A DNA stretch of 63,857 bases, filler included, from Sluysia triapertura (GCA_046118255.1; 4 parts of 4 records of this genome joined end to end with filler, not necessarily neighbours in it), one strand, 5' to 3'. Counted from the first letter of the whole stretch, positions 1,640 to 60,322 are shown. Notes: generated by a model from the sequence alone, not told the origin. A program made the numbers and translations.

Positions 1640-2405
1640 TACGCGATCTTACATAATTAGCTTAAAATATTTTCAGGATAATCTGGATTTAACACTTTTA
1701 CAGAACATTTATGGGAAAATTAAATTGCTACTTTTACGTAGTTTAAAACTGAATTATTCTCTTCAGTCAATTGTTTCAAAGTCTGATTAATATTTTAATT
1801 CACTGTCTATTTTATCTACTTTCTTTAACTTATTTTAATTTCTATACTTACATGATCTTACATGAATAGACATACTGTGGAATTATTGAGTGTACAAGTT
1901 GTGACGTAATCAATTGTTATTTGACGATCTTTGAAAATGATTAAGAATAGAAGTTTTGCTGAGAGTTTTGGGGGTTAAAAGATATTTGTTTCATCATTGA
2001 TTCCTTTTGTATACAGCTTTTGGATTTTAAGTATAATCTTTGTATATGTTTATGAATTTGGTGAATTCAGTGAATCTGTTATGTGGGTTTTCTTTGTGAA
2101 ATGGTGTTAATTGGTGATTTAAAACGTGTGCATATGAAGTAAATTGAATGAATTAAGTTGTATAAAATATAAATTGTTTGATTCTGAATATGATCTATAG
2201 AATGAATTTGTTTAGAGTAACATTACTATTGAATGGTTTATTGAATTTATTGATTGTAAATGTTGTGAAATATAGAATATATAAATAACTATTAAATAAT
2301 CTAGGAATTATTTAGATTGAGGATTTTCTTAGCTATGTTTGAGTTCTAGGTTTACTTTTTGATAATTTTCTAATAAAATTAGATGTCATGAATGCAACCA
2401 CCACA
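1640..2405 (-). mobile_element. TGT-headed A/C-skewed dispersed element (diverged copy)
   Basis: Minus strand begins TGTGGTGGTTGCATTC at 2405, has an A/C-rich body, and carries the family 3' motif AAGATCATGTAA (+ strand ttacatgatctta ~1848-1860). Confidence 0.55.
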
Positions 2406-2599
2406 AGATCGTGACAATTAATGGATTAAAATTATGCAAATAATATTATGATTTATTAAAATTAAAAATATTGTAAAAAAATATCACAGTAGTTTGAAAA
2501 GCATCTTAAAATGTTCTAAAATCCAAAAATAAATGACAGAAAGCAAAAACCCATTGATGTTGAATCACTAGACTTAATTAGGAAGTCGAAAAGTTACGG

Positions 2600-3100
2600 A
2601 TAAGACGACAACAGAAACGAAGAACCGATGATTAACAAATGAAAATTGGCACAACATTTTTCGATTTTACTATAATCATTATATGTTATTCTAACATAAT
2701 CACTTGTTTTATTGTAATACGGCAGCTAGAACGAATTAAAATTAATAAGAAAATAATTAAAATAAATGTGAAGAATCGTCACAGAAACAGCATTGTATTA
2801 GTAAATAATTATGTTACAACAATGGAAATATTCAATAAATTGAGAATAATTTGAGAAGCAACAAATTATTATACAGAAGACGCACATTCATGTTAGTTAT
2901 AATAAAATTATATTAGAAGAAGAAACTATTGCAGTGAATATTGGCTATAATGTATAATAAACTGGGAAGTAATAAAGCAAGAAAAATTTTAATATAAATA
3001 GATATATAACCACAGAACAAAATTTTTCACAAAAAAAGGAATAAAATGGAACTACTATCAGAAATATAAAACGAATATCAGCAATAACATTGATTGTAGA
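2600..3100 (+). mobile_element. Possible degenerate Penelope-like GIY-YIG remnant
   Basis: Fragments RQLERIKINKKIIKINVKNRHRNSIVLVNNY and IINWEVIKQEK loosely resemble the PLE endonuclease C-terminus; many stops. Confidence 0.25.
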
Positions 3101-4429
3101 ACTTTATTGAATCGAGGAAAGTAAAACCACTGAACAAATTCTGACAATAACCAAAGGTTGGTTATTTTGTAAGGTTTTAAGAATTTCATCTTTGGAAATA
3201 AAAATTCCTTAACGTAAAGTAAGATAAATGTGGGTAATTATAATCTTGTAATTTGATTTGTTTTTTTAAAGAAAATGAAGTTTAATTAAGGTTTATTAAT
3301 AGCTTCTATTCTTATACTTTCATAGATCGATCACATACTTTAATTTCAAATTCTTTTTGTTCTCATAGATTTTGAGTTCGAACCATCTGCACTGATAAAA
3401 GTAAAAGCTAATATGTTCCCAATAAATTATATTGCTATAACAAAAATGATAAAATATACTTACACGAAACGAAGGTTAACTAATGAAATGTTAATCTTGT
3501 TAAAATTCAACAAAATACTGCTTTAAAATTGTATTACTAAGATATTAGAGTTTAATTTTTCAAAACAAGTAACCGTAAGATGGATTTATAACAATCGTAA
3601 TTTTTTCAAATAACTTATCGATACTTCAATAATATGCTCCTTCATTTATTTTTACTACTAAAATCAATGTGATATCAACCTATTTATACTAAATTCCATT
3701 CATTGTTTCAGTTACTAATGATATTTCGATTTACATAATTCTATTGCTATAATTTCTATAATTAATTTAATTTCTCTATTATATGCTTTACAGATAACAT
3801 GATAACTCTACTATATTTTATCCGGTTATAGTATTTTCTTATATATAATGTTTCCATAGTAAATTAATAACTTATTCTCCTACGTTTCGTGGTGATTTAT
3901 AGTATCAGTTACATTTTATGTTTCTGTGCTTAATTATTATTTTAGTAAATTAATATTTTTCATATTCTAACACATAATAATATGACCAATATTAATCAAA
4001 TTAATTTTTTCTATAATATTAGTTTAGTCATATTTATAAGCAAAATTTAATGGTTACATATTAGTTTGTATTTGTTTGCGCTTGTTAGTATTCGTTTGTC
4101 ATAACTGTTTTACTAAAATCATGTGCTTTTTGTTTAATCCGTATTCTTTTCTATTTGCTTATAAAGTATAAAAAGTTTCATACATTTTGTTTGTGTTTAC
4201 CATTACTTACTTTTTAAATTAGCTGCATTTTTAAGTTATTAAATGCATTTTCAAAACTGTTAATAAATAATCGTCTTACTTATTTTTTTTAATAGCAATT
4301 TTACAGGGTTTTAACCCTTATTTCGAATTTTTAAAAATTATTTATAATAATCATTGTATTTATAATATAAAAATATATTATGATATAAAATTTAATCAAT
4401 AATAATTTCACCTCTACAGCTTAATATAT

Positions 4430-5420
4430 ATGATACCATATTCATGTAATATCCATTTCAGTCAATCTCCGATATTAAATCACGCACTCTTTATTTAGAG
4501 TCTATCGATTCTGTTTCATTATTCTGTTTTCTCCTTTTTACTAATTCCTTCCATTACTAAAAGCATTATAAATGGGATTTGAAAATGGAGAATAATGAAA
4601 TAAATAATCAAACTCAACATTTATCGCTCTTAACAAAGCCTTTATCTCTAGAGTTTTGTGAAATCTCACATTATCCATTTTTTCGCTATTTTTCTTTAAT
4701 TTTATCGATCAAGTTACTAAGGAATTGAATGGAGGACAAAATTTTGGATATGTAATGCAAGATTTCAGATTAGGAAATTGTACAGCATACCTATACATTT
4801 CTCGACTTGATATGTAACAGATATAACCGCAGACGGACCAACTGCCTATCTTCATCTTGATATCTTCATTGAAACATTGAACCCAGTCTCATCGATAAAT
4901 GTAAGGTTCGAAGAATGTATTTCTGTTTGATACTGCAAAACCTTCTTGCATAAGCCATTCTCATCAATATTTTCTATAGTGTTTCTGCGCTCTGGAATTA
5001 GTGAAACTCTTTTTAGTGAATAATTGAAGCCTCTAATGTATTTAGCAATTGTAGTTGCAGAAACAACGATAATAAAAGCTTCTTCACATTTATCAACTAA
5101 ATCTCTCCAAAATATGGTAAGATCTTGATCAATCCCGTCTTTCATTATGTTTATCTGGTCTTCATTTAGTTTTGGCAACACTCTGCCAACTTTAGGACCA
5201 GCTTTGGTATCCCAGGTTTTAATATAAGAATTCACAATTGAATAAACCGTTGATAATTTTCCATGCATTATACTTAAAATTTACTTTTTCATTCCGGAAA
5301 TATGGGGTAATATACACCTTATAAACTTCCAAAAATAGTATTTGAGTTTTAAAAATATTTATAAAGTTCCAAATAAAGGTTTGTAAATTCGAAACAAGGG
5401 TTGCCATATTATCAATAAAG
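4430..5420 (-). mobile_element. Degenerate Tc1/IS630-like DDE transposase
   Basis: ORF 4852-5268 has HTH/winged-helix-like VSATTIAKYIRGFNYSLKRVSLIPERRN and the first catalytic motif FIDETGFN. Downstream frameshifted DNVRFHK and YSPFSNPI motifs lie at ~4570-4680. Confidence 0.85.
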
Positions 5421-19454: not shown

Positions 19455-20234
19455 GTAACAAAGAAAACGCATAAATTTCTTTATCTTTCGAAACTTATAC
19501 ATGATCTTACTTTCATCTTTACTTTTCTGAATATATTGAAATTTAAAATGAAGAAGAAGCACGATCTGTTGTTATATGTATGGTTTTCCTTATTAATTTA
19601 CGAGTCTTAATGATATTTCTGCTAATGTTCTAGATAAAATGATGTTTCTATTTGAAAATGTTATTAAAACGTACATGATTCTGACTTAATTATTTTGAAG
19701 TAGTGTAAGTGTTGAGAAGAGTGCAGAATGTTCACTGGTGTTTTGAAAGAAAGTCCTATTTGGTTGTTGGAACTTAATGATAAACGATCGTGCATTTAGA
19801 ATGTTTGGGTTATTTTTTGAAGATTTTTAGTAAGTAATCTTGAATGTAATTATGATTGAATTGTTAAGAATGAAGAATAAGTGTTTTGAATGATTTTTGC
19901 TGTAGTTTAATGGTTTGAAATGTAATTGTGATTTGAATGGTATGAGGTATCGAATACATATTTTAATGAATTGTTTAATGTAACTTGATGAGATTGTAGA
20001 TTTACAATGTTTTGAAAGGTTAATGTTTATTTTGATAGATGTGAAGCGAAATGAGGTATGAAAGCGATTGAGGTGAATTTTACAGAATTGTTATGTTGTT
20101 AAAGAATATGATTTTAGATATGATGAGTTAGTTTCAAATGGATTTAAAATGTGTAAATTGTATTTGGAAGTTTATGCTTTTAATGTGTTTAAATTTTTAT
20201 GGATTTGGTTAAGTTTAGTGAGTTGGCCACCAGA
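19455..20234 (-). mobile_element. TGT-headed A/C-skewed element
   Basis: Minus-strand head TCTGGTGGCCAACT; 3' end TAAGATCATGTATAAGTTTCGAAAGATAAAGAAATTTATGCG...TTTGTTAC matches the other copies. Confidence 0.7.
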
Positions 20235-23282: not shown

Positions 23283-24113
23283 TGTAGTGGCCAATTCTTA
23301 ATTTCCTAAAAATCTCACAATTTTAATGCCAATTTTACTCAACATATTCAAATCACAACAATCAGTTTACAAAAAAACATAACACTTAAATCAGTCACAT
23401 TTCATATTATCGAATTACATTAACTGATTCATCATAAACAACATTTGACATTCATAATAAGTAAACAACATATATTTCTTAAACAACTCGTCTAATACTC
23501 TCAACCAGTCATCTCACACCATACTTTGATAATTAAGACCAAGGAATCCATAACATTCACTCAATAGTCATCATCTCAAACAATCACAACACATAATATT
23601 TAAATCATAAATGTATCAACACTACCCAACAACACTAACAAATACCTGAAACATAGAAAGCATTTGTGTTACAACTTCGAATCAGTTGTACTAATTCAAA
23701 CCCATTTCAGCTACACATAACCATTATCAACATTTTACAACAACATTGTGAATACACTAAGATTTGTTTTGTAATTGTTTTTCAAATCAAATAAACTATA
23801 ACCTATTAACTAGTCTTTTAAACCATTACATTCAATGCATAAATCGTATTTTTAATTATGAAACTTTAAATAAATCTCAAGAAATTATTCTAACATCCTT
23901 CATTCCAGTTACAACTTAAAGCATTTCTCTGTTTTTACAAAATAAAATTTATGTACAAGTAGAGCATAATGTACCGTGTTATTGTTGCTCCTTCACATAT
24001 TATCAACAGCTTTTATCTTTCATTTTTAACTCCATATGTAAGAATTAAAGAATTCGACAGAAAAGTTCGTGTAAATTTCAAAAGAGAGATTTATGCGATT
24101 TATTTTTGTTAGA
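23283..24113 (+). mobile_element. TGT-headed A/C-skewed element (cassette A)
   Basis: Head TGTAGTGGCCAATTC; conserved 3' end ...AAAAGAGAGATTTATGCG; followed by (AAT)/(TTA) tract. Confidence 0.7.
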
Positions 24114-24202
24114 CGATAATAATAATAGCAATATTATTGTTATTATTATTATAATCAATCATCAAACCATTTTCAAACATTTTGTTTACTTATTAGTTGT
24201 CG

Positions 24203-24365
24203 CCATCATCAATATTGACACTCTGTTCACTATTTTATTAATATGTCAATATTGATGATAGTAAATCATCAAAAAACTAATTTGCTATTTGATCATTAAA
24301 TATCATCCAATCACGACTGTAGTGTATATATAATCATTTTTGAAGTCGTGATTGGATAACAAATC
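24203..24365 (+). promoter_or_regulatory. Dyad + CCAAT module (cassette A)
   Basis: CCATCATCAATATTGACA (24203-24220) / TGTCAATATTGATGATAG (24244-24261), then a perfect 14-bp IR ATCCAATCACGACT (24305-24318) / AGTCGTGATTGGAT (24344-24357). Confidence 0.75.
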
Positions 24366-24497
24366 GTAATATACTCACTATCAGTGTTATTATTGACTAA
24401 AAATATCATTAGAGTGATTAGTAAATACAAAAATAATTACAACTTTTTGGTGAAATTTACTAAATGCATTTTTACAATAATAAGATTTTAAAAAGTT

Positions 24498-25692
24498 ATG
24501 AAAAGAACTTCTCCGAATCAACCGACTGTTAGAAATTCCGTGAAATCAGTTTATACCCAAACTTTAGTAAAATGTACTGTTAATAATGATATTCTAAAAC
24601 CGAGTAATAAATTGTTAGCGAAGCAATTAATAAAGAATTCTAATGAGTTTAATGAAATCTATTTAGATCAAAACCCAAAAACAGAACAAATTTCAAATGT
24701 TTATGACGTATTTTCCTTTCGTAATCACAATAAAGCTATCATTAAAATAACTACCCCTTTTGATGTTTCCGAACATAATGCAATTTCTGTAATACACTAA
24801 AGAACGAAGATAGTTTTTACCCCGAAACACTTAGAACAAATGTTTGTAAAGAAGTTAAAACTGGATGTTATAATGAAACGCCAGTAATGAATATTAGTGG
24901 GAATAGTCGATCCAATAAGTCAAATCTTAAAGATTTAACCGATTTAGTTAATAGTCGAAAACTAACAAAATCAACTCGTCTTATTGCCACATCTATGACA
25001 TTATTTTCAAAAAATTTTTTATCATTAATCAAACTACGACAAAATAATTTAATAAATGAACTAGTTCAACAAAAAGGTTATGGAATGTCCCAAATCATTA
25101 ACGAACAATTATTCAGTGAAAGTATACTCAAAGATGAATTAGTCAACCATGATGACAAAAATTTAGGCAGGAGTACACAGATTATGCATAATCTACATCG
25201 TATGTCAAAGAACTATCTACCAAATCGACCGAAGGTCACCACCATGATACAAAGTAAAGCAATTGATTTGTCCATAGACAGAGTAATCCCCACGTTAGAT
25301 TAATATTAAAAATATATGCTGCAAATGGTTTTAAGATTGATCTGTATAAATTTATTATAAACAAATGTTGGTATAAAATAAATCATAACTCAGAAACACA
25401 TTTCGAATCTCTAAAGAAATTAGTCACGCTAAAATATTTTGCTATTCTGCAAATTAATGGTATCAACTTAATGTTACAACTCAAACAACTAAGGATGTTA
25501 TTAACAATCAATTGAGAGAATAATTCAAGCATAAGCACATTCGATACACGTGAATTCATGAACAAGACCTTTTGCAGTAATATATTAGGTATAAGCATTT
25601 ATTCTATAATTTTTTTGATTTATATTTTAGATAATAAATTTAAGCAAAGGATCAATGGAGTACGACAAGTCGTAGCGATGCATAAAATTTAA
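24498..25692 (+). pseudogene. Frameshifted orphan gene with a 42-nt intron
   Basis: ORFs 24498-24800 and 24887-25303 join through a frame change near 24790. Coding-like sequence continues to ~25588, then a GT-AG intron 25589-25630, then DNKFKQRINGVRQVVAMHKI*. Confidence 0.55.
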
Positions 25693-26179
25693 AACTGTTG
25701 TTTTATGTTATAAATTTCTTGCATTTAAAATTTTTATAGTTATTTTAACAGATAAATTACGAGATTTAAATTTATTATTTCGAGATAAAAGAAATTTATA
25801 TTATTACATAGCTTATATAGAAAAAACGAGTTCGAAACATAACTCATTGATGTTTAATGAATTAAAAGATGAAACTAAGCTCAGATGTAAATTTATATAC
25901 ACATTAACAGATACGACTCATCTTAATATCGTCTAACTCTATTGTACATCAAAACCTTCTATTAAATTTTATTATGACAATCATTGACTTGACTATTACT
26001 TCGCAACCTATAAATCTGAAACCAAATATGAACCACCTATCAAACACAAATCAGTTTTGTTTCTCCAATATTAATTTGTTAAAAATATTTTTAGTTAAAA
26101 TCTATAAAATCTTTAAACTAATATCACAACTCAAAATATTAAAACCCCCAAACTGTGATTGAGATTACATTTTCTGTTA

Positions 26180-26384
26180 AATTAAAAAAAGGAAGGAAAG
26201 TTTTGATAGAAAATTAATGAATTTAAAGGCGTTAACAGAAATTCCATTTACTTTAATGTTATTTGAAATTTAAAATACGAATTTAATGATTTTTGATGTA
26301 ATGAATGGTTTATATGTTGTAAAGGTATGATTTTTAGTGTAGTGTAAAGTATTAAAATTTTGTGTGAAGATGTTGGCCACCACA
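26180..26384 (-). mobile_element. TGT-headed element, truncated
   Basis: Minus-strand head TGTGGTGGCCAACATC followed by A/C-rich sequence. Confidence 0.65.
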
Positions 26385-31440: not shown

Positions 31441-31529
31441 CCAATAAATTGTAATATTTAGAAATCAGATTTTAATTTTTATTCAAAATTACATAATCCT
31501 TTAGATGAAAATAAAAAATAATAGTAGTA

Positions 31530-31789
31530 ATAAAAGGAGGATGTGAAAATTCACACAATGTTGGTGTATTTGGGTTGAGCGATATCGGCAGATTGAAGTA
31601 ATGTTAAATGATAAATTATCATAACCTGAATGATATATTCTATTTAAGTTAAAATATATTAGTGTAATATGTTTAAAGTGTGTTATATTTTAGGTGTTGT
31701 TATGTGTGCAAGATGTGGCAAAGGTGTACTGTGTATTGAATATTTGTGGTTGGGTTTGTTAAAGGTTCATGAATGAGTTGAACACTACA
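31530..31789 (-). mobile_element. Short TGT-headed A/C-rich element
   Basis: Minus-strand head TGTAGTGTTCAACTC, strongly A/C-skewed body. Confidence 0.55.
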
Positions 31790-32881
31790 ATTGGTAATAG
31801 TTTTAATGGTTTAATTAAAAAAATAAAATGGTAGAAAGAAATTCAATATATAAGGTAAGCCTATTTCTGATAATAGGACACAATTAGAATTAAGGAAATA
31901 AAATTAAGCAAGTCTTTGGAAGAGTAAGCCACGATCGCGAATCAACTTCAATTCAAAAACGATTTCCATGAAAAAGTAATTCAGTTATTTATAAGTTTCC
32001 CTAAGTCCTAATTTTTATAGAATAGAACCTAAAATTTTACTTAAAATAAATAACTTATTGTCAGACCGTAAAAAGGCTGACTTAAAATCAAACTAAAATT
32101 TATTTTAAAAAATCTAAGAAGAATTTCTTAAGATTTTAAACTCATTATCGTTAATATATTTACCATATTTACCTGCTGTAAAATTTTTTCGATTGATTTT
32201 ATTGTGAAGTTTATTCTGTTTTGTGTAGAATATAATTGTTCAATAGTTGCATTAAATTGTGTTATTTAAAATCCGTGCTAATTTTAATCAGACCGTAAAA
32301 AGGCCGTCTTAACTTGCAGATAAAATAAAAATTAAAATTACTGTATCAAGTACTACTACCAGTTGACTTTCTGCTCAAACTATCGTTTACAGTTAACTTC
32401 ATTACGTTATAAGTCTAATTAGACAGTCCTCAGCTAGTGACAGAAACCGTATCTAATTAGCCGTACTCATTCAGACGTAAACTGTTTTGCTAAGTAGGTT
32501 CTTTTCAAGACAGAACACTTGCAGAAATTTTCCATTTAAGCTTTATATGATATACTAAAATACTATTAGTCAACTTGTTGAGTGATTGATACTAAAATTA
32601 TTTTATCGACATTTATTGCACTAAAAATTAACTTATGACTTTGTGTCTAGTTACTAATTTTGGTGTCTATTATATAATAAACCAATAAAGACAACTTCAC
32701 TCGTTGCCGTAATTTAGATAACAATTTTTAAAATTTTATTATTATACATAAAATTATTATCTTTTTTTTAATTTGTCTTCTGTGTTACTGCTTTAGCTAA
32801 TTATTGATTTCTGCTTTCAACTTCTTCAACATTTGTTTGGTTTGGTTAACATATTTGTTAATTATAGAATAAACATTACAG

Positions 32882-32902
32882 TTAGGGTTAGGGTTAGGGT
32901 TA
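32882..32902 (+). repeat. Interstitial telomere-type tract (TTAGGG)3
   Basis: ttagggttagggttagggtta. Confidence 0.8.
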
Positions 32903-33199
32903 TTACGAGCTTTATAGTATCTGTATTTGATTAAAAATATATTAACACCATTTCTGACGTTACTGCTTCGTCTTAGTACAATTTTATAGTAAAGAAAAGC
33001 AAATAATTTAAAAAATGTAAATTTATTAATTATTATTACACTTAAAGTTTTGATTTCTATTATTGCATCACTATACACTTCACCGACCCGAGTCTTTAAT
33101 TGAATCTCTAAAATAAAAACAATGCTTAAAAAATTGTAAAGATAAACTAATAAAATGATTACATTAATATGCTTCGCCAAGGAATGAATCGTTGTTAAA

Positions 33200-34186
33200 C
33201 TGGTAGACTTGTCATTTTCTTGTTTTCCGGAATGATACATGATTGTGATGTTTGCTGTCTATTAATTCATCAAGTCGATAATAATTCACGCTTCTTTCAG
33301 TAGCCGATCTATGTGTATGACTATAATGGTTCCAAAACCATATTTTTATTCTAAAAGATCCATATTTACTGCAAACTACTCCATGTGTAGAATTTTACAA
33401 TACATTATGTATTTGTGTAAATTAGACTTTATTAATGATGACATTACAAATTGTTCAAGAATCAAACAGTGTTTCATAAATTGGCATTTCAGATTTCTTA
33501 AATTTTGTCTGCAAACTGTTTGTTGAGGTACTCTGATGAGACCTAAGTCGTAGTGCTGATAATCAATTGGTTCCTTAATGTAATTATTCAACACTACATA
33601 TCTAATAACTGGATAGACATCTGCTAATTGCCAACAGTTTCGTACAAACATTGCATTACAAATATGATGATATTTATCAACTTTAAATTCGTCTTTATAA
33701 CGATGATCTAGAGCTTTATAATAACCGGTTATTATTTCACGATAAAACCCTACATAACTATAAATTATCAAAATTATAGAGGCATAGGAGCATTCAAAGT
33801 CTTTTAATTGAAAAAGGCCATCTTTAGATATCTGGTTTCAGTGGATCAGATGACAGTATTTTCACGTTACGTGCTGTTATCCATAGAAATATTACTCGAG
33901 CTTTTTCAATTTCCTGAAGATGATATCGATGTATATCATCACAGATTACATCATAAAATGATAGATATTCATCTTGACTCATTCGAATAACATGAGATTT
34001 GACTGTTACTAATACAGATGTATCGTCATAGATTTGAAATTTGAAGTGACTTGATGGTTCTGGCAGTGAAGCTTTAGAACTGTCTAGTGGTTTTAGTAAT
34101 ACGAAATTTTTTGATGCTAACAGAGACATTTGAGATTTTTCAATTTTCGTTATCATCAATCTTTTTCTTTTCGTAAATTTTTGCAT
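33200..34186 (-). pseudogene. Hillarin/kyphoscoliosis-peptidase-like (transglutaminase-fold) gene, disrupted
   Basis: EIEKARVIFLWIT, ECSYASI...SYVGFYREIITGYYKA, RNCW...V, LILEQFV...LIKS follow the order of the hillarin/KY core. +1 frameshift near 33826 and in-frame stops after 33376. Confidence 0.6.
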
Positions 34187-34273
34187 TTTTGTATTTTTTG
34201 TAACAAAGAAATTGTGTTGTGATATAATTACTTCATGAAAATTTTTTAATGTCTATCTGACAAGAGGACCATT

Positions 34274-34448
34274 GTGATTGGTCGGCTACTAATAGTAACA
34301 AAATTTAGTGTAACACTGATTGGATAGTTAGCATTAATGGTATTATTAAAAATCAAATTATATGATTGTGACGAAGCGTCAAAGTAACCACTATCAATGA
34401 TGACAACACAACATGTATAGTAACTCCAAGTGTCACTATTGATAGTGG
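34274..34448 (-). promoter_or_regulatory. Dyad + CCAAT module (cassette B)
   Basis: CCACTATCAATGATGACA (34388-34405) / TGTCACTATTGATAGTGG (34431-34448); on the minus strand ATCCAATCAG and GACCAATCAC follow toward the ATG at 34186. Confidence 0.75.
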
Positions 34449-34538
34449 CAATGTTTTTAACGGATTGACATAGATTAAAATTTCAAAAATAATGACGAAA
34501 TATAATAATAACAATAATAATAACCACAGCAGTATTAA

Positions 34539-34592
<54 letters not shown>

Positions 34593-34593
<1 letters not shown>

Positions 34594-35399
34594 GTATCAA
34601 TACATAAATTCTTGCTTTCTGATTAAACATAATCTTTCTGTTTTCCTCTAAAATTCTTCTTAACATATTACAAATGCAATGAATTAATTAAAGAAATGAT
34701 AAAATTGAATACAATAATAACGATAACAAGATGCGCGATGTTCAAGTTATTATTGTTCCTTTGATTCTTAGAGGTTTCTTGATATATTGTAATAAATTTA
34801 AAATGTGTTTAGAACAAAAGTTTTTGAGTAGAATTTGCTTTAACTGAATTGGTAAGCGTAGTTAGCGTTTCAAGATATGATGGTTGATTTATGTCGTGAA
34901 ATGAAATAGAGAATGTTAGAATGCGTTCTTAAATGGTGATTAAAGTTCATATTTGAAAACGACATTTAAGTATTGGAAGATCGTGAATAAAAGACCTATT
35001 GAGAAGATTGTAATTTGGTAAACATAAAAGAGCAACTACAACTCTTAGTATATTTAAAGTATTATTGTGCAGTGTTTTATGATATTTGTTTATTCGTTGT
35101 TTTTAGTGTTGTCATTTGTGTTGCTAGTGGTTTAGTAGTGTAAAATGAAGAATTCAAAATTATTGAATGGATAATCTCGAATGTGTTTTTTGTTTGGTTA
35201 TTATGAATGTCGAGTAACATGTTTTTGGTAGAGTAGTTAGTGTAATTGGTAATGTTGGGTGAAACTGTGATTTGTATGTTGTGGAATTCTGGGTAAACTG
35301 TTTTGTAGGTATATAAGAGATAAATGTATGAGTGTTGGAGTCTAAAAAAATATTCGTTTTTTAATAAAATTTTAATGGTTGTGAAGGTTGGTCACCACA
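34593..35399 (-). mobile_element. TGT-headed A/C-skewed element with TG...CA ends (cassette B)
   Basis: Minus strand TGTGGTGACCAACC...AAGATTATG...GAATTTATGTATTGATACA followed by a long (AAT)n tract; no clear TSD. Confidence 0.7.
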
Positions 35400-36979: not shown

Positions 36980-37140
36980 TGTAATGTCACAGCCGAACAC
37001 CTTATTTTTTGAAACACAAACCCAAACATAAACACAAGCACAAATATAATCATAACTCACATCAACCTCACTTATACACATTTCATTCACCTAATGACTC
37101 CACCACATTCCATTTAAGCTATAAAACCTAAACAACAGTA
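36980..37140 (+). mobile_element. Short TGT-headed A/C-rich element
   Basis: Head TGTAATGTCACAGCC, A/C-rich body. Confidence 0.45.
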
Positions 37141-37204
37141 TTATCAATATATAAAATATTCAGTAATCTACAAATTATATTAATCTATCATAAGAGTATC
37201 ATAA

Positions 37205-39200
37205 GTATTTTTGTGGTTATCGCCTTCTCATTCACTTCAGCAGCACACCAATATTTCAAATTTTAATAGTGCTTATAATCTGTTTCGTTAAAAACACAGT
37301 GACCACCATAAACCTGAATTTGAAAAAGCAGTTTTGTTTGCTTTATCGAAATATGCACAACAGTTATCACAAAAAGACTTATTAGAAACATTATTGATGT
37401 ATATTTATCGAAAAAGTACAATTTTCGAGGATGCATATCAAGAATTTCTGCAGATTTTGATAATAAAATTATCGAAATATTCCAAAAGTTGTCAAATTCA
37501 TCAGAAATTGATTTTTTATCTTGGTAGTAGAAAAACTTTTACGTTGTTGTTGATAATTATTATTTATGATTAATTTTAATTACATTCTTATATGTTATTA
37601 AATATTATTGGAACTAAGAAAAGTGAATGTTTTATTAGTTTGTTATTATTAATGTTTACTTTTTTAAAAATATGGTTACTAATATGTACTTTTTTTAATT
37701 AATGTTTAAACATTATTGTAGATATTTTCTGATTTTAAAAGTCTATTCATATTGAGCGATATAGTTGAAATTTGAAAGTTGTTACTATCTCTTTTTTGCA
37801 TGGAAATTGATAGTGACTGTGTTCGCGCACGAAGTAAGCTGTTATCAGGTGATTTGGCCGATAAATTGGATATGACAAAAGTTTCCAGTTCAGCGCATGA
37901 AATTTGCTCCCTCTGACCGGTGATGTTTATAACGACAATGACGATATTGTTGACAGGGCTGAGTATGATGAAATCAAAATATGTCGTACTACGGTTATTT
38001 TAACAGTTCTTGTTACCAAGACTTAGTCAATTTTGTCGAGTTGATGAATCCAAGTATAGTTCAATGAAATATTATTTAAATAATATTAAAATTGATACCG
38101 AAAGTGTTTAGGCTGATTGCGTTCAAAACGAAGAATATAAGCGAAATATTTCGAAAGAAATATTTAAAAGAAAATGATGTTTATGATGGGTCATTGATAG
38201 CCTTTGCTCTTTTTTTGGATTATACAACTTGTTCTGGATTAAAGTCCGAAGATGAGGTACTGTGCGACATTCAAGAAAATAAACAATTCACAAAATCTAA
38301 TATTAATTGTTGAGTATCGAGTATAGTTGGAACAAAATTTCACCACTCTCAATGAAAACAGCAACAATTACATAGAGTTAATCCACTGAAGACAACTCTT
38401 ACACAAGAAATTGAATCTGCAGGCATTCAGAACCAAGATCATCTAGGTTCAAGCTCGATTTTATCAGTGGAGTGCAGTAATCGAAGTAGTGTTGATGATG
38501 ACAATGATGGTTACGGTAATATCCATCATACCTTTTTATATATGATTTTAATTAAATTTAATAAGGACGAATTGAAAAAAGGTGAGACTCCTGTTCACTC
38601 ACCTTGTTCTTTTATATTTGAATTACTGCTACATAATATTAGCAATATTTTTTTGAATGACAGCAAACGAGTCTGTTGACAAATGCGTAATGGACACTAG
38701 CAAAATTTATGCTTTTTTGGACCACGATAAAATGATTTCTTTCGAACGTTTTTGTACATAATTGTGCATACGAAACAGATAACACGATCGAAAATTGTAG
38801 ATTGGACGATCAAGATCGTTTCCACATCTATTCGAAGCCACGAACTCCAGGTTTTACAAACTTTAAAATTTTAGATTCATGTTATTCACACTCAATAAAT
38901 TTCCACTTTTGTTATTCAAATTTGTTTTTCGATTTTTATCTTAATGATTTTCAGTTAATTAATAAAGTTCTAATAAATATTCGAGTTATTTTAATCGAAA
39001 AATTTCAAGATAATGTTAAATGACTTTCGTAATTTTGTATATCGAATAACGCCTTATGGCCATTACACCAACAATAATATTTTTTTGAATGAATTCAACT
39101 TGATCATTGGCGGAGTTTAAATCACCCCGTTGTAATTGGAATCTGATGTGTTTCCTACCTTTTTACTAATACGATATTTCCTCTTATTACACAAAATTAT
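37205..39200 (+). pseudogene. Long decayed intron-containing gene, product unknown
   Basis: Continuous coding-like sequence (ORFs 37334, 38092, 38467, 38802) with in-frame TAA/TGA/TAG and several frameshifts; probable intron ~37524-37721. Confidence 0.5.
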
Positions 39201-40667: not shown

Positions 40668-41599
40668 TTATTCAATGACTTTCGCTAAACAAACTGATTA
40701 AATTTGTAATAATAGTCGATAAAAATTTCAGCATTGATTAATACATTAATAATATTAATTATTTTTTATTACTTTTATTATTTTTATTTTCAGATTATTT
40801 CACTTCAAGATTGACATGTAATTGACATAACAGTACAGTATCACGTTTAATCCAATAGCTGACAGGTTTACTATTATTAAGTGAAATTGGTAATATAGAA
40901 TGACACGTAGTTGAACAATACACCTCTTCTTTCACTAGTTTTGTATGCTGGGAAATGTAACGTTTTCTTGAAGTACTAATATCATCTTTGTTACTCGGTT
41001 TAAGCCTTTTGTGTAATGATTATTACTAATGTTATTACTAGTCGAATAATGTGGATTCGTATGACTGACTTTTAATAATTTGTTTAGCCGTATCTGATAC
41101 TAATTTAGATGATATAGGTTCCGTTATTTTATTTTCGTCTTGTCTGATATTAATTGGAGTTTGTTTGACAATAATGTTTCCTTAGAGTCATTTTTTTTGT
41201 GTGACCACAAATATAAAGATTAGCACCTTTAATAGGTTCAGAACTTAGTCTAATTAGCGATACTTTCTTTCGCATCCAAGATAATATTGATATTTAAAAA
41301 TGTTACCTGCTGATTAATAGATTTCATTTGCAATCGACGAATATTGTTGTATACAAAAAAAATTAGAACAAACACAGAGATAGTTTGATAATAAAGATAA
41401 AAAGGGATAACAATAATGATAACATTTATGTGATTATTATGTTTATTAATACAGAATTGTCGAAATTTATTATGAAATTTTGTCATAAAGTTTATTATTA
41501 AAGTTATTGTAAAAGTTATTATTCGATATTTATTATATAACAATAATGATTATAATTTTTAACACAAGTTTTAATGTGATATGAATCATAATAATAATA

Positions 41600-41723
41600 A
41601 CGATAGTTCATGATAGTTAGATGGGATGGTTTTGTTTACTTTTAAATGAGTTTAGTAGTTTGTTTAATAGTTTGTGTATATGTAGAGTGTTTTTATGCGG
41701 TGAATTGTGATGAGTTCCCTACA
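41600..41723 (-). mobile_element. Short TGT-headed element (subfamily TGTAGGG; second copy 43470-43558, minus)
   Basis: Heads TGTAGGGAACTCATCAC (41723) and TGTAGGGCTTCATCAC (43558) with shared ...AAACTACT(A/T)(A/G)ACTCATT. Confidence 0.55.
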
Positions 41724-41910: not shown

Positions 41911-42740
41911 TGTGGCTCATATTATATTAATAACACCATTCACAGACATCATAACACGTCTCACTTATCTCATCACATAACAACCTCACACTTTCACTAC
42001 TACATTTCAACACAAAAATCAATAGAATTATTAAATCATCGATTAAAATTAAACTCTACGTTAATAATGTTAATGTTACTACAACCCAACCTTTACGATA
42101 AACATAACTGCCACATTCATCGTATCATTGCTCATATTTATATTTTTATTATGTTCATGTTTTATAAAACTATCACATAGATCCTGAAAGAACTCGAGAA
42201 ATGTGTACTTTACGAAAATGTTTTTATGGTTTCTTTCTTTCATAACTTCAATTGTTTGTATGGTCTTGGTTGTACAATTCTTGATTTATAATCGGGCTAC
42301 TAACTGATGTATCTCGCCGAATTGGTTATCAATATTTGTGTGGACTTATCAAATCAACAAATTTAGAATTAAATAAAGATTAAAATTTCCCATGTTGATT
42401 ACTCCTTAAAAAATGCACAGGATTTTGAACAGTTCAAAATTTTATCACAAAGTTCGAATCAAAGAAACAGTTTAATAAAAGAACGGAAAGAAAAGGCTTG
42501 ATTCAAGAACATAAAGAAAGTGCTTGAAAAAAGAGTAAATTGTTTAACCGCATAAAAACTAGATAATAATCTGACCTTGGGCTAAAAATAGAGTTACTAT
42601 TAATGTTAAAAATTTTTGAAATGATGATCTAAAAGTATGGATAAAAATTTTAAAATGGAAGCTCTTGAAAGAATGAATTTAGTTCAGGAAGATGTTACGT
42701 CTAGATCACTGATGTTCTAGAAGCCAAGTCTATCTAGTCA
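41911..42740 (+). mobile_element. LTR-like element plus decayed internal coding region, copy 1
   Basis: Aligns with 49755-50500 (TCATATTATATTAATA, CATAACACGT, TCGATTAAAATTAAACTC, and AATGAATTTAGT(T)CAG near the 3' end). Confidence 0.65.
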
Positions 42741-42999
42741 CAAGTAGATCCATTCCGATTAATTTTATATATTGCGCAGAATTTTGATTACTTACCGTCA
42801 TAACTAAATTGTTCAATGTTATTCAACATCAAAACTGTGAATGTCAAATCAAATGTAACGCCAGAACCTGCACACATAAGCATGTCAGTGCTGCGGGTCA
42901 GATACTTACCACTTCTTACTTACATTTCCTATCACATGTTTTATAATTTTTTCAATTGAATTTTTTATTAATAAAATACCATTATGCTCTTAAGGATAA

Positions 43000-43400
43000 T
43001 CATCATCATCTTGTGAATAATCAAACACTTTATATTTTATAATTTCCGATATCGTGGAAACAGCAGTCGTGGTAATAGTAATAACTTTAGTAGTAGTACT
43101 AGTAGTAATAGCGATAGTAGCAATGTTAGTGGTAGTAATAGTAATAGTAGTAATAATAATGATATAATTTTAGTTAATTTTTCAATGAGTGATTCAGAAA
43201 GTTTTTCAGATATTACTCGTGATTCGATGTAGTCATGAAAATTCGTATTTAGTGAATTTCTTTGAGAATCTTTAAAATTTCCATATAATTCACTCAGATT
43301 ATTTCGCTGAAAAGAGTTTTTATATTCATCTAAATCTCTATCATACATCAAACTGTATCTGAAATAGCGCTACAATTATTTCTGGATGTTTGATAAATCT
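43000..43400 (-). pseudogene. Coding-like fragment with a CTA/TTA microsatellite insertion
   Basis: MMYDRDLDEYKNSFQRNNLSELYGNFKD... reads as coding; the poly-Leu part is microsatellite. Confidence 0.35.
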
Positions 43401-43586
43401 TAGAATTATTATATGAAATTATTATTATAAGAATTATTATTACAATGGAATTTATGACAACAATAAATATAACTAATGACTATGTTTTTGAATGAGTCAA
43501 GTAGTTTATTTAGTGTTTTGTTATTGTAAGAAATGTTCGTATGTGATGAAGCCCTACAAATAGAGTTACAGTGACATACTACATTT

Positions 43587-49754: not shown

Positions 49755-50500
49755 TGTGGTGCCTCAGCCGATTAGCAAGATCATATTATATTAATAGCAT
49801 CACTTAAAGACACGAAAACTTTATAACAAAAACATAACACGTTTCATATATTATCACATAATCACATACTACCATCATATCTCATAATTTCCCTATTACA
49901 TCTTAACACCGAAGAAAAACAATAAAGTATAAAATCGTCGATTAAAATTAAACTCAATTTAATAATATTAATATTACCACAATTCAATCTTTACAATAAA
50001 TATAACCGCAAAGTCATCATATCATTGTTATAATTTTCACACTTTCGCCTATACTTAAGTTTTTATTATACCTCTGTTTTTTGAAACTAGTCTTTTCATA
50101 TCAAATAAATTTCAATCGAAATCAAGATTAGAAACGTGATCTCAGGCCATAATTCTGCTCATTAAACGGTATTTGTGTCCTTACGGTTTATATTATATAA
50201 AGTATTATATTTTATGCAATGCCTTTAAAGCCAAAGAATTAAAGGAGAGAAGTAAAGAATTAAAGACATGCAATTGTTTTAATAAAATAAAAACTATATA
50301 GTATAAGTTAACCTTGTACTATTTTTAGAATCTCAAAATTTTAAAAGATAATTTTAAGTGATAATTTTAAAAATCAATCAAGACTTTTCAAAGTGCAATG
50401 TAGAATGAACCTAAAATGAATTTAGTCAGATGAATGTCAAATTAGAATTTCTAATGCTGAGTGGCGAGAGAAGTAAAGTCTGTGTCATTCTGATACCACT
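49755..50500 (+). mobile_element. LTR-like element plus decayed internal coding region, copy 2
   Basis: Head TGTGGTGCCTCAGCC; homologous to 41911-42740. Confidence 0.65.
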
Positions 50501-51482: not shown

Positions 51483-51922
51483 TGTGGTGGTCAGCCCTTA
51501 ATATCATTATAATTTGATAAAAATAACCCTTAACATTCTAATATTCATATATCATCTTTACTACACCCATAGAACAATTCATTTGTTAAAGTTAAAGTTT
51601 ATTCACAACCTTATAGCTTATACATCACATTTGCATCTAATACTACCAGTTTTCACCAACAAATCCATCAAAAACATACAACTCTACATTCACAGCAATC
51701 AAATAATAACCACGTTTGAAATTATTCACTTCACATCTTCGAATCAATTATAACATCTTAAATTCATCAATTATCATCACATAATCCCTAACAGTACAAA
51801 ATATATCACTTAAAAACAACAAATAAACAATTCACATAAAACATTCACATTAACCTTTCAAATATACCAAGAGTTATATTTTAATTTATCTTTTCACATA
51901 TATCAAACCACACTCTTCTTAA
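51483..51922 (+). mobile_element. TGT-headed A/C-skewed element running into a gap
   Basis: Head TGTGGTGGTCAGCC, A/C-rich body. Confidence 0.65.
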
Positions 51923-52022
51923 NNNNNNNNNNNNNNNNNNNNNNNNNNNNNNNNNNNNNNNNNNNNTTAATTAATTAANNNNNNNNNNNNNNNNNNNNNN
52001 NNNNNNNNNNNNNNNNNNNNNN

Positions 52023-54201
52023 TCAAATGAGACCATCAAATCTACCGGAAATATTCAAAAAGTATGAGTGTGGAACGTACATTTTCAGATTGCCGTGACG
52101 CAGAGCAACTATTGAGAAAGTGTAGAAAATTAAGTAGAAATCTTGTTGATGAAATGATCGATACTTGTGTTAAAGCAAAATCTGTTCACATCAAAATGAA
52201 GCTTGATAATTTCGAAATCAAAACTCGATCTCAAGTGATGTTGACTTATACTAATGATTCTGATGTTGTAATTGAAGCTACATGCGGACTTTTACGAGCT
52301 GAAATAGAATTGGATCCTCACCTTTGTCTCAGACTTCTTGGTGTTTGTAAAACAGTATCTAGGTAAAGTATTACTTGGTAAAACTTCAGTTGGAGATAAA
52401 AGATCCAGTAAAGAAGTAGAATGTGCTAGTGAGATGGATGAAACTATTCAAGCTCAAATGTCAGTTAAAGTACAAGAGACTTCAAAAATTGCTGGCAAAT
52501 TAATCAGTAAGATTATTGATATGAAGAAGGGTGATATGCAAGAAGTGGTAGAAGACTATCAAACAAAATCTTCCTTATTATTGCAAACTGGTGAAAATAC
52601 AACAGCTTCTAAAATCGAAACTTACACGGAAATAACCAAAAAAATTAACAACAGATTACTAATTATCAATCAAGAAACTGAAAAGGCACGCCAACAGTTA
52701 GAGAATTTGAAGAAATTATATGACGAAAAATTACAATCGAACCAGGATAAGCAACATCAAATTGATGAATATCGTCAAAAAATTGATGAATTCATTTCTC
52801 AAGCTAATAAAGACATAAATGTCGAAGGAGTCGAACAAATGGTTATTAAGTTGGAAGAGTTCAAAGAGCAAGAAAAAGTGTTGAAGACAAATATTGAAAT
52901 TGAAGATAACAAATTAGAAGAAGAATTACGAAGAGTTACAGAAAACCAAATCATTATTGATGATGAGGATAAATTGAAGGAGTTGCAACAGAAGTATGAC
53001 CATGAAAAAAACGATTACATACAGGAAGAAAAAACTAGCTAAGATTACGCGTGAATTAACACGTCTAGAACTTTTTGTGGATAATGTACTAACTAAACGA
53101 GAGATTCATCAATATCAGAAACGTTTTATGGAACTTTCTGATCAAATAAGCATTGCTTATTCGTTAGTATTTGTTTTTGTTATTATTTTCATTGTGATTA
53201 TTATTTATAGATAATATTACTATTAATTAAGTAACAATGTAAAGTTAATGAGTAGGATTGATGTAAATAGTAATTTTTTTCTACGTAAATTATAAATAAG
53301 AGTGTGGTTTAGATACTTGAATAAATATTACATAATTTTTAATGTTACTAATAATAAAATTATAATTTAACATTTTCCATTTGTCGGATAATAAGTGAAT
53401 TACAAGATAGTATGAATAGGGTATCTTTAAAGTTATTCAGTTATACATCCATCAAATTAGTCGTTCTGATATTTATTTGTTTTGTTAGACTTCATAAAAT
53501 GGACTGACCGAAGATTGAACCCGGGACCTCTCGCTGCCCAGTTCGATGCTCTACTCACTGTGCTATCGGACCCGTCTAACAATTTATAGATTAGAATAGT
53601 CAACTGTACTAAGTGGCGGCACCTTAGGCTTATATCCCAACAGTTTGACCATTTCTTCATTTTATAAAAATTTTTTCTATAGTTAATCTCTACTGCATGG
53701 CCAAATATATTGATACAGTTCTGTTTCTTTATTGACATTTATATACATAAAATTTCTATTTTTAGCGATTTTCATATACTATTTAATTTTAATAGAACTT
53801 TCTCACATTAACATTAAATTAATGTAACAAATATATTATTAATAGTAATAATAATATAATTACAGGGAAAATAAGCAATTGTACGATTTATACAATATAC
53901 AAAGCAGTGTCAAAGATTGTTTGCAACGAGAAGTTAATTTATTAAATTCCATTCATGATNNNNNNNNNNNNNNNNNNNNNNNNNNNNNNNNNNNNNNNNN
54001 NNNNNNNNNNNNNNNNNNNNNNNNNNNNNNNNNNNNNNNNNNNNNNNNNNNNNNNNNNNNNNNNNNNNNNNNNNNNNNNNNNNNNNNNNNNNNNNNNNNN
54101 NNNNNNNNNTGAACAGTTCATTCCAAAGTAACAATGCTAAAGATCAGATGATCAAGCAAATGGAACATGTGGCTAATACTATTCGAGAATTGAAGAAAAA
54201 T
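52023..54201 (+). CDS. CCDC93: CCDC93 (CCC/Commander complex), partial; exons ~52023-53162, 53866-53959, ~54110-54201; two frame disruptions
   Basis: LAKITRELTRLELFVDNVLTKREIHQYQKRFMELSDQIS, ENKQLYDLYN...LQREVNLLNSIHD and KDQMIKQMEHVANTI match the CCDC93 C-terminal coiled coil. The GT-AG intron 53163-53865 restores frame. Frameshifts near 52340-52365 and 53030. Confidence 0.85.
53483..53581 (-). mobile_element. tRNA-derived short element with inverted termini, copy 3 (in CCDC93 intron)
   Basis: Minus strand: TGTTAGAC GGGTCCGATAGCACAGTGAGTAGAGCATCGAACTG...GAGAGGTCCCGGGTTCAATCTTCGGTCAGTCCA TTTT ATGAA GTCTAACA. Confidence 0.8.
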
Positions 54202-54229
54202 GTTAGTTTTGTTTTCATTTTAATGAATG

Positions 54230-58300: not shown

Positions 58301-58663
58301 ATTTGGAACCATTTAGTGGTTCTGGCGTAAATTTATAATTCAAATATTTTTGTTAAATTAATTAACAGATAATTTTGTAAATTAACTATCTGTATTACTT
58401 GTTTAATTTTTGTAATACAAAGTTAATATTTGAGTTTTGAATTTAACTAATAACTTCTACAGTTTTAAAATCATAAAATCGCCCGAGTATAGAAGCTTAT
58501 CAGAATTTCATTCAGATTCGTAAAATCAATTAATATAAAATGATTTTCATGGGATTTTCGTAAAATATAATAACTAACCTTTTAGAAATTTTAATAACAT
58601 CCATATTTAATTTTGTAATTAAGCCAACAAGCACTAAGAAGTTTGTTTTTTAACCTTCAAATA

Positions 58664-58711
58664 CCAACGGCTAGCTCTAACCGGTAAGCCTAGTACGATG
58701 GTGAACTCACG
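58664..58711 (+). other. GC-rich 48-bp conserved motif, copy 2
   Basis: CCAACGGCTAGCTCTAACCGGTAAGCCTAGTACGATGGTGAACTCACG. Confidence 0.7.
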
Positions 58712-58914
58712 TATGATGTTACTTTATTCTGTTAGCGTAGGTTTAAGAAAAGTAAACCCCATCATTTGTATAAATATGAATAACTCTTACGTTAAAACTA
58801 TTCGCAATAAATAAAATTTTTACTTTTAAATTATTTGAATTTAACTCAATGACTTCTAATTATCCAAACTTTCTAAATACTTTGCTTAATAAGTATAAAG
58901 AGTCTCTAACAGAA

Positions 58915-58974
58915 ACGGTCCCTGTCGTTGCGGAGTTCGTTGCTCTACCACTGAGCTATCAGCCCCGTCTAACA
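58915..58974 (-). mobile_element. tRNA-derived short element, copy 4 (3'-truncated)
   Basis: Minus strand TGTTAGACGGGGCTGATAGCTCAGTGGTAGAGCAACGAACT: near-canonical tRNA D-arm/A box. Confidence 0.75.
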
Positions 58975-59425
58975 ATTTTATTTTATCATAGTCAATATTT
59001 GTATACGTGAAAAGAATTTCAAAAGTATCCCTTGACCTAATCAAGAAAATTATAAGCTCCTAATATCTATAAGTTATGACTATTAACTTAAGTTAATAGT
59101 TAATTAAGTTAATTGAGACTGATGATGTATTTAGACGTTTTAAGTCTGTTATAATTCTACAGCAGGTTGTCAGAGATACAGTGTCATATTAAATACGTAC
59201 TGTGAAGTTTTAAGCAATGTAATGTGTTTAAGATTGTACTTGATTTATATTTTTAATGGTTTTAATTGTTTGAATGACTTTATCAATAATAAAATTGTAG
59301 GTTTTGTAGTAAACCACCAAAGCTTGTTAATCTTTGTTTTCCATTTCCATTTCAACAAAATTATTTGGATATTACAATTACTAAGATATTTTATATTAAT
59401 TTTTTTATTATTATGTTATATTATT

Positions 59426-60321
59426 TGCAGTGCCCAACCTATTACCTTAATAAATTTTATTAAAAAATTTATATTACACATTTTCAAAAATCCATTAAAA
59501 ACATTCTTTTTACATAAGTTTTTGCCAACATAACATTCTCTCCCAAAATCTACAACTCACATTTTTCAATTCACAACTAGTACAAAAATAATATAATCAT
59601 ATTCAGTTCAACACCACATAACAACTTTGTAAAATTCGTCACAACCGTTTTTATATCTTATTCCTTTTTACATCCACCAAAATCAACTTCCAATTTTTTC
59701 AAAACATTTCAAATCTTCAACCTTATAACATTCAAACCACAATCACATCCAATAGCACCAAATTACACTAAGAAATTCATCAAAAATATTTTATTCGTCA
59801 TTTCAGAACAATCTAACTACAATCACATGAGAAATTAACTATCAGACACCTTTAAATTAATTCAAACATTCTAAATTCATGATATGCACATTTAATTCTC
59901 AACAGCACATAAAGACATCACTGCTTAAATATATCAAGAAAATAAATCACATTTTTAACATTCTATAATCATTTTGCGAAAATATCAAAAGTTAGACTAT
60001 AACTTATCTACTTTTTATACACTAAACTACACCCTTATAACATATTAGTAACTCACGATCTATAAACATTTTCAACTAGAAACATTATTTCATTTAGAAC
60101 ATTAGGCTGAATTATCTAAAATTCATGCAAAACTAGAAAACAGCAGTTAAAATTTATATTAAAACGCCTAACGCATTATCTTACATCTCTAAGCTGTAAA
60201 ATCGCAAATTCACAATTCTGTAAACTTCATCTGTTTTTTAAGTCTAACATGTTCAGAAATTCAAGAGAACAAAAGCAAGATCATGCATAAAGCTTTAAAA
60301 GACAAAGAGTTTACGTAGTTA

Positions 60322-60322
<1 letters not shown>
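59426..60322 (+). mobile_element. TGT-headed A/C-skewed element (cassette C)
   Basis: Head TGCAGTGCCCAACC; 3' end CAAGATCATGCATAAAGCTTTAAAAGACAAAGAGTTTACGTA; (AAT)n at 60323-60363. Confidence 0.7.

Follow-up and report, generated by a model that had tools for sequence, protein, structure and literature searches.

The broken gene pieces behind C/A-rich, TGT-headed repeat arms in Sluysia triapertura

A stretch of DNA from Sluysia triapertura (GCA_046118255.1; four record parts joined, 63,857 nt including filler, 25% G+C; hereafter the window) contains thirteen short TGT-type heads within positions 1640..60322, each opening a C/A-rich arm. Why do these repeats so often point into decayed coding sequence on their own strand? 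A first-pass annotation took the heads for one family with a likeness to long terminal repeats (LTRs) and proposed that they mobilise or duplicate downstream DNA, or insert just upstream of promoters. The shared orientation most likely arises because the elements carry the broken coding sequence as cargo of their own: the gene pieces behind the arms likely lie inside the elements and were likely copied along with the arms, and the window holds at least six such arm-plus-cargo units. We tentatively regard the heads as the left ends of several repeat families, namely non-autonomous transposons that carry captured host-gene pieces behind what is predicted to be a promoter.

All thirteen heads are present at the annotated positions, and eleven begin with TGT, the exceptions being 20234 (TCT) and 59426 (TGC). 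With at most one mismatch allowed, the motif TGTRRTGNNCARCY is found 10 times in the window where 1.72 matches would be expected; seven of the ten are listed heads. Leave-one-out scores with a position weight matrix (PWM) were 16-21 bits for eight heads and below 9 bits for 2405, 36980, 41723, 41911 and 43558. The strong A/C-rich run was borne out as well, since the C-over-G skew of the next 200 nt lies in the top 3% for 12 of the 13 heads and at 8.8% for 43558 (arm composition ~20% C, 7% G). The heads fit the integrase motifs TGTGGYG and TGTNATRT given in table 3 of PMC3601003, and TGTNR termini are present in 11/13 heads and at both of the far ends described below. The heads do not, however, belong to one family. 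They agree in their terminal 7-13 nt, whereas pairwise alignment and leave-one-out profiles group the bodies as five, two, two and four singles. Family A comprises 20234, 23283, 35399, 51483 and 59426 (pairwise body z 2-22; 23283 recovered leave-one-out at E=3e-9), family B comprises 41911 and 49755 (body alignment z 17), and family C comprises 41723 and 43558 (arm alignment z 4). The singles are 2405, 26384, 31789 and 36980; a search with the A profile did not recover 2405 and gave only a weak head match for 26384. An extended family uniting 31789, 36980 and B was rejected, as a leave-one-out profile of the other B-like arms recovers neither. Same-family arms on the same strand have diverged far beyond an LTR pair.

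Downstream of each head we searched for ACA followed by the head's own flank, and two matches have head-like inverted ends. The first, E1, is solid as an element with both ends, and the second, E2, is likely one (Table 1). E1 is flanked on both sides by CCAAT, an exact 5-bp target duplication; E2 lies between CCAAA and CCAAC (5 bp, one mismatch) and has a perfect 7-bp terminal inverted match. Single-site chances of these flank matches are 0.0009 (E1, no mismatch) and 0.0086 (E2, one mismatch). Both far ends read GGCCATYACA, which is seen twice in the window against 0.083 expected, and TGTRRTGGCC is found four times against 0.05 expected, two of the four being unlisted heads that face 31789 and 36980. 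Among other duplication lengths, exact 4-bp matches occur in 1/133 pairs, which is not above chance, and exact 6-mers in 0/133. The ends (TG...CA with a ~7-bp inverted match) are of LTR type, so that the suggested LTR likeness stands for the termini and the 5-bp duplication; it stops there, as a search of the window for paired LTRs, a primer site and a polypurine tract found none of them. The 117-codon frame resembling E1's 'downstream gene' sits within E1, where the coding signal is weak (codon score 7.3 vs 4.3), and E1 also holds a small CCAAT-type palindrome near nt 345 and AATAAA at nt 394 and 425. The cargo of E2 (~37290-39020) scores 28 vs 8 on the same strand and contains seven frame changes and a stop. 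These far ends with 5-bp duplications are what the window newly adds.

Such ends also bear on whether the arms are ends of rolling-circle elements of the Helitron or Helentron type, in which read-through of the terminator captures downstream DNA and hairpins serve as recognition signals. Hairpin pairs, a microsatellite, an end conserved on one side and a stepwise decay of depth would suit this explanation. We know of no rolling-circle elements with target duplications or TGT...ACA ends. Helitrons and Helentrons use fixed target bases. The 5-bp duplication of E1 is exact and its inverted ends are 7 bp long, and the bases flanking the thirteen heads have no fixed base in common, which makes a rolling-circle origin very improbable.

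To gauge copy number, contigs of run X1 were placed on 36113-44600, where unique contigs have a depth of 6-20. Depth is ~950 on the arm of E2 and 70-170 across its cargo. Single-copy contigs cover each E2 junction (0 differences at one, 2 at the other), and no difference is present in a contig over 37450-37888, so the stops there are not specific to the assembly; a further contig matches two parts of the E2 cargo with 16 and 21 differences and is a paralog. Depth at 43558 is ~10,000 on the arm and 240-420 on the cargo (43295-43316). The cargo behind 36980, 41723 and 43558 thus stands well above single-copy depth, and the supposed downstream gene likely belongs to the element itself. The proposal that the element mobilises or duplicates downstream DNA therefore survives in modified form, with coding sequence between the two ends of E2 and its 5-bp duplication (one mismatch). 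Behind 41723, a scrap of ~30 codons (41180-41269) resembles ELAV/Hu proteins: only three PDB matches were obtained at E<=10, all of them ELAV/Hu and all at one position (best E=0.026), while Pfam gave nothing and no relatives were found. Because position 41258, with a depth of 8,640, falls within the scrap, a host ELAV-like piece appears to have been amplified together with the arm, as judged by sequence likeness. Directly outside head 43558, the segment 43590-44070 is also multi-copy (depth ~850) and includes a degenerate Cys-rich frame at 43629-43736 (-), and 41724-41910 is coding-like on the minus strand. An Unkempt-type CCCH finger was considered in E2 (38736-38900) and at 43629-43736 from degenerate Cys spacing seen by eye, and was rejected since Pfam, PDB and Atlas give no support.

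Coding sequence was called with a codon model allowing frameshifts, which gave 22 coding-like segments (top score in shuffled windows ~13). Codon scores behind arms refer to regions of 0.5-1.8 kb picked by eye, with a signal cut-off of P<=0.03. By this measure, same-strand coding 'in nearly every case' was an overstatement. Same-strand signal lies directly behind 8 of the 13 arms (51483 across a gap; 31789 and 41723 weak), there is none behind 2405, 26384, 41911 and 49755, and it is on the opposite strand, across a gap, behind 20234. The gaps at 19355-19454, 36013-36112 and 51923-52022 each consist of 44 N, TTAATTAATTAA (12 nt) and 44 N and are likely artificial spacers, for which reason joins across them are unproven; two of the three interrupt family A arms, and the sequence beyond may be non-contiguous. 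Where ungapped arms have a coding signal, the cargo is on the same strand in 7/7. Upstream coding-like segments are on the same strand for 8-10 of the 13 heads. What recurs is an arm with its own cargo behind it, or with none, and not a general preference for neighbours. Stops and frameshifts, as had been annotated, are present in five of the six strong cargo segments, and the sixth has one frame change; some of the frame changes may be introns, and those near 53030 and 60830 lie in A-runs and could be assembly errors. An alternative genetic code as the source of the stops was rejected, since long conserved frames read normally with the standard code. Two heads were said to abut the broken end of another coding fragment. 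This is so at 35399 (coding-like 35376-35571); next to 23283 there is only an opposite-strand frame of 33 codons that the codon model does not call.

The most regular arms are those of family A (~1.1 kb). In all three ungapped copies the head is followed by a C/A-rich body of 0.75-0.9 kb, an AAT stretch and a motif module, in which a 20-nt motif forms an inverted pair ~60 nt across and is followed by two CCAAT boxes. With a PWM for the half-site, the six family A sites score 25-31 bits and five other matches stay below 15 bits, much as in simulated background. Letters specific to one copy tend to recur in both arms of its pair (24202-24262, 34387-34449, 60442-60504), which hints at pairing or conversion in these three copies. 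The cargo starts within ~150 nt of the arm end, and the first ATG lies 1,215 nt from head 23283 and 1,213 nt from head 35399; the 3' parts of the three cargos are unrelated (z<=1.2). These promoter-like motifs belong to the repeat (3/3 ungapped A arms) and the recognisable cargo is fragmentary or fused, so that insertion just upstream of promoters finds no support. Gene families were recognised for three cargos only. The cargo of 59426 matches Pkinase (E=1e-16) and SAM_KIDINS220 (E=8e-6) in Pfam and MAPK7 in PDB (E=1e-24), with ERK5/MAPK7 as the best animal match. In the possible cargo of 51483, a CCDC93 coiled coil begins within ~70 nt of the IMS_C domain and the N-terminal part of CCDC93 is absent; the piece keeps a GT-AG intron at ~53167-53865 between exon pieces that correspond to profile positions 272-313 and 318-348, and a search for its relatives found none. 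AT-rich GT..AG blocks of 54-106 nt, intron-like by sequence, occur in four cargos, five in sense and one in antisense. No Pfam family at E<=0.01 was found for the cargo of 23283 and no reliable family for that of 35399; a trypsin-like Atlas call for 33379-33837 was not accepted owing to low recognition. Three TAACCC units lie near 32890 within the cargo frame of 35399, and 31960-32420 holds two diverged direct copies, spaced by ~230 nt, with an exact core of 17 nt (z 6.5). The segment 20860-21723 (-), which lies upstream of head 20234 and on its strand, is a frameshifted fragment of a Cys/Met-metabolism pyridoxal phosphate enzyme (E=4e-7).

Several observations weigh against reading the heads as ends of cargo-carrying elements. 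A far end with a duplication accounts for 2/13 heads only; for the other eleven, which include all copies of families A, B and C, no far end is established. The right arms of E1 and E2 have no alignable similarity (z -0.5). A duplication test on four strong facing pairs (end >=12 bits, within 3.2 kb) gave P=2e-4 with a 12-bit cut-off set post hoc, and the joint P across all far-end candidates of >=6 bits is 0.04. Exact 5-mers occur in 2/133 pairs (P=0.03; one is a T-run), and 5-mers with at most one mismatch in 3/133 pairs against a null of 3.9, which is no excess. Since the wider tests are weaker, the E2 duplication is not significant alone. The parent gene of the E2 cargo was looked for in Pfam, PDB and Atlas and none was identified; at 39066 a single contig is shown (depth 13.5), so that no paralog is seen at the right end of E2. 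Depth summed over contigs does not measure copy number, and run X1 possibly comes from the source sample. The intron evidence from CCDC93 lies across an assembly gap, and 1 kb behind head 41723 there is an intact frame of 220 codons (40005-40667, -) that is single-copy. Finally, the next downstream segment is on the same strand for 9 of 12 heads, which is not significant (null 0.58-0.59, P 0.15-0.17).

The last two points would suit another account, in which the heads are scattered solo LTRs, or the ends of transposons, of several ordinary families, pseudogenes co-accumulate with them in gene-poor regions, and the orientation reflects chance and a few exapted promoters. It would also suit this account that the heads are not one family, that four of the thirteen have no coding sequence behind them and that upstream neighbours are equally often on the same strand. 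Chance scatter, however, does not lead one to expect coding sequence within both ends of E2, cargo in many copies, same-strand cargo directly behind 7/7 ungapped arms with a signal, or a head-to-ATG spacing that is near-identical in two A copies. We therefore consider it improbable.

A closer competitor explains E1 and E2 as solo LTRs. Their source would be non-autonomous retroelements of Gypsy type, in which the long LTRs had taken up pieces of messenger RNA (mRNA) by template switching. The C/A-rich arm would then be U3, the cargo would lie in R/U5, and the other heads would be truncated LTRs of the same clade. TG...CA ends with a ~7-bp inverted match, together with a 5-bp duplication, are characteristic of LTRs (PMC3601003, PMC6839031), E1 is of typical size and has AATAAA twice, planarian genomes are Gypsy-rich (PMC6431247, PMC11410931), there is precedent for host RNA genes inside LTRs (PMC10886601), and sense-only multi-gene mosaics are known for LTR-mediated retrocopies (PMC5131818). 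Sense-only mosaics together with LTR-type ends favour an RNA route like that of such retrocopies (PMC5131818). No second LTR or long terminal inverted repeat (TIR) was found in E1 or E2 (internal direct repeat z 0.5 in E1 and -0.5 in E2; inverted z 0.7 in E1), no primer site follows either far end (no TGG start at either), and a polypurine tract precedes 0/13 heads (at most 9 purines in 15 nt). These absences are expected of solo LTRs too and do not dispose of them. What fits less well is that intron-like blocks are still in the cargo, that depth drops stepwise from the C head into the cargo where one LTR family would be evenly covered, and that our literature search gave no match for captured gene fragments within LTRs. 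E1 fits a solo LTR, and E2, which carries ~1.7 kb of broken coding sequence, may be one as well. As an explanation of the whole set, we find solo LTRs possible, yet doubtful.

The intron-like blocks and the lack of a polypurine tract and primer site slightly favour movement as DNA over cargo-laden solo LTRs. If the heads are ends of cargo-carrying elements, a Gypsy-type integrase acting in trans would recognise the ~7-bp inverted ends and make a 5-bp staggered cut. The arm would act as an inward promoter, and gene pieces might enter through template switching during repair or replication and be kept in the sense direction. The unit would then move as DNA, like a Ginger-type element with minimal ends, a step proposed because the cargo keeps intron-like blocks and there is no second LTR; most copies would subsequently decay. 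An integrase or other mobilising enzyme was not found among the window frames scanned, and neither was an autonomous gag-pol partner. A bolder and rather doubtful version is that these are undescribed 'pack' elements. With their 7-bp integrase ends, 5-bp duplication and one-way promoter arm they would resemble one LTR and yet be mobile as a single unit of DNA; sense, intron-bearing host pieces would be strung behind the element's promoter, and some of these would have reached hundreds or thousands of copies. The literature searched gave no description of such an element, and it may be catalogued in supplements or in Repbase, which lay beyond that search.

Table 1. Coordinates of arms, cargos and two-ended elements in the window
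Feature	Position	Strand	Description
Family A arm, complete	23283..24360	+	Motif pair 24202/24262, CCAAT pair 24305/24349
Cargo of 23283	24494..25690	+	Frameshifted orphan coding; codon score 30.6 vs 7.2; 54-nt intron-like block 25577-25630
Family A arm, complete	34270..35399	-	Motif pair 34449/34387, CCAAT boxes 34317 and 34275; broken coding fragment next to head at 35400-35585
Cargo of 35399	32800..34252	-	Frameshifted orphan coding; codon score 29.6 vs 7.0; 55-nt intron-like block 33162-33108
Family A arm, complete	59426..60620	+	Motif pair 60442/60504, CCAAT boxes 60561 and 60615
Cargo of 59426	60628..61957	+	Decayed MAP-kinase fragment, then unknown frame, then SAM-like piece
Family A arm, gap-cut	19455..20234	-	Ends just before AAT stretch
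Family A arm, gap-cut	51483..51922	+	About half its length present
Possible cargo of 51483, across gap	52031..54203	+	IMS_C (Y-family polymerase), E=1e-14, then CCDC93_CC
Family B arm	41911..42250	+	~20 nt absent behind head; no coding signal behind; far end not established
Family B arm	49755..50150	+	No coding signal behind arm; no far end found
Family C arm, very high copy	41210..41723	-	Depth 260,000 at 41490-41772, 8,640 at 41258, 305 in next bin
Family C arm (~190 nt) and cargo 43367-42993	42990..43558	-	Cargo differs from that of 41723; codon score 16.9 vs 6.3
E1 (head 31789)	30985..31789 (805 bp)	-	TGT head, ~300 nt C/A-rich arm, far end GGCCATCACA
E2 (head 36980)	36980..39067 (2,088 bp)	+	TGTAATG head, ~250 nt C/A-rich arm, far end GGCCATTACA
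Single short arm, A-type head	26150..26384	-	No coding signal behind arm
Single arm, ~800 nt, C/A-rich	1560..2405	-	AAT-rich stretch at arm end; no far end or coding behind found

Other possible far ends were considered. Head 26384 faces 23283 at 3,102 bp, and 11 of their first 12 nt are inverted-identical; there is no longer inverted match and the 5-bp flanks differ at 3/5 positions, leaving 26384 as a candidate right end of the 23283 element. The emptied site would be in frame only without removal of a duplication (11+34 codons), about a 1-in-3 event. As paired ends, the inward-facing listed heads 23283/26384, 36980/41723 and 41911/43558 were rejected, as none has a 4-6-bp duplication. A far end for 35399 at 32258 (3,142 bp) is at chance level, its AT-rich 5-mer occurring seven times within 8 kb with no family support; the emptied site has an open frame of 60+15 codons across it. 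Far ends for 59426 at 62603 and for 41911 at 43753 (4-bp match) were likewise judged chance-level. Searches beyond the window found no match for the A arm in phages or for the motif pair and C head in metagenome contigs, and no family was matched in an Rfam scan.

The remainder of the window contains ordinary and decayed sequences. A Pfam scan gave animal genes for innexin, CCDC93, a Y-family polymerase domain, MGAT2 and a kinase; ten window frames were looked up by exact match in a protein collection and 0/10 were present. The first exon of an innexin with its splice donor lies at 48016-48426 (+), its closest named relative being innexin7 of Dugesia japonica (58%), which points to a likely flatworm, and no further innexin exons were found in the window. 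Upstream of it, 47526-47627 is a weak match to the 3' part of the A arm (E=0.83), and the exon could be the cargo of a headless arm. The frame at 45641-47218 (-) is intact (525 codons, 496 amino acids from the first ATG) and no TGT arm precedes it; it has no Pfam family, and the 496-residue query found 0 relatives among 1.84 billion representatives. An intact single-exon frame of 159 codons without known family (17659-18138, +) and the terminal exon of MGAT2 with an acceptor site in front of it (6686-6900, +) are likely ordinary host genes. The frame at 40005-40667 (-) has a hydrophobic N-terminus and no reliable family. A short repeat is present four times (10374-10500, 16715-16820, 53482-53611 and 58921-58996; 73-90% alike), the copy at 53482-53611 lying inside the CCDC93 intron; it looks derived from a transfer RNA by eye and has no Rfam match at gathering score. 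Decayed frames at 4730-5280 (-) and 63036-63589 (+), which we take from their motifs to resemble Tc1/IS630-type transposases, have no Pfam match at E<=0.01. A small repeat occurs as two inverted copies at 56706-56791 and 58638-58723 (~83% alike over 53 nt).

Gene capture by elements is well documented in plants and looked rare in animals, with 370 young Pack-TIRs in 100 genomes (PMC8277862). If the pack-element reading is true, the group would stand between LTRs and Ginger-type DNA transposons and would supply flatworms with chimeric genes on a large scale. Movement as DNA with integrase ends of only ~7 bp would, if it occurs, put to the test whether LTRs and Ginger TIRs can be converted into each other, as has been proposed (PMC2836005, PMC3601003); the elements would then also offer a concrete route of exon shuffling in flatworm genomes and explain many fragmentary annotated 'genes'. 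With the right-end motif and the 5-bp duplication, the autonomous partner can be sought directly across the genome.

How do these elements compare with known systems? They work like Pack elements and fail a defining test of each named family except the solo LTR. With Ginger1 and Ginger2-Tdd (PMC2836005) they have in common TGTNR termini and, as would be expected here, Gypsy-type integrase chemistry; TDD-4 and TDD-5 also make 5-bp duplications, and Ginger elements tolerate introns and carry extra host-type domains. Ginger TIRs are ~40-300 bp long compared to ~7 bp here, and animal Ginger duplications are 4 bp rather than 5 bp. Further differences are that no transposase was found in the window and that an asymmetric arm leads into cargo of variable, mosaic make-up. 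GingerRoot (PMC6839031) is an integrase-type DNA element with gene fragments containing introns in 22 of 77 intact copies and with many unpaired single ends; its duplications are 6 bp long, however, its TIRs measure 100-150 bp and its ends are mostly TA...TA, features not seen in the window. The solo LTRs of animal Metaviridae (PMC3601003) have similar inverted ends of ~7 bp and the motifs CsRN1 (TGTGGYG) and Mag C (TGTNATRT). A one-directional promoter-like interior is common to both, with AATAAA in E1, while E2 has ~1.7 kb of broken coding sequence between its ends and the window is without a full-length two-LTR partner. LTR-mediated retrocopies (Tan et al. 2016, PMC5131818) are partial, sense-biased and sometimes multi-gene chimeras that can be amplified as non-autonomous units; these are mRNA-derived copies between both LTRs, whereas here there is no LTR pair and intron-like blocks are kept. 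Animal Pack-TIRs such as Ssk-FB4 (PMC8277862) capture gene pieces at the DNA level inside the element, and some are multi-copy and transcribed from the element. Pack-TIRs belong to recognisable TIR families and are mostly single-copy, in contrast to the LTR-like ends and seemingly abundant cargo-bearing copies described here; Pack-TIRs are the functional counterpart of these elements.

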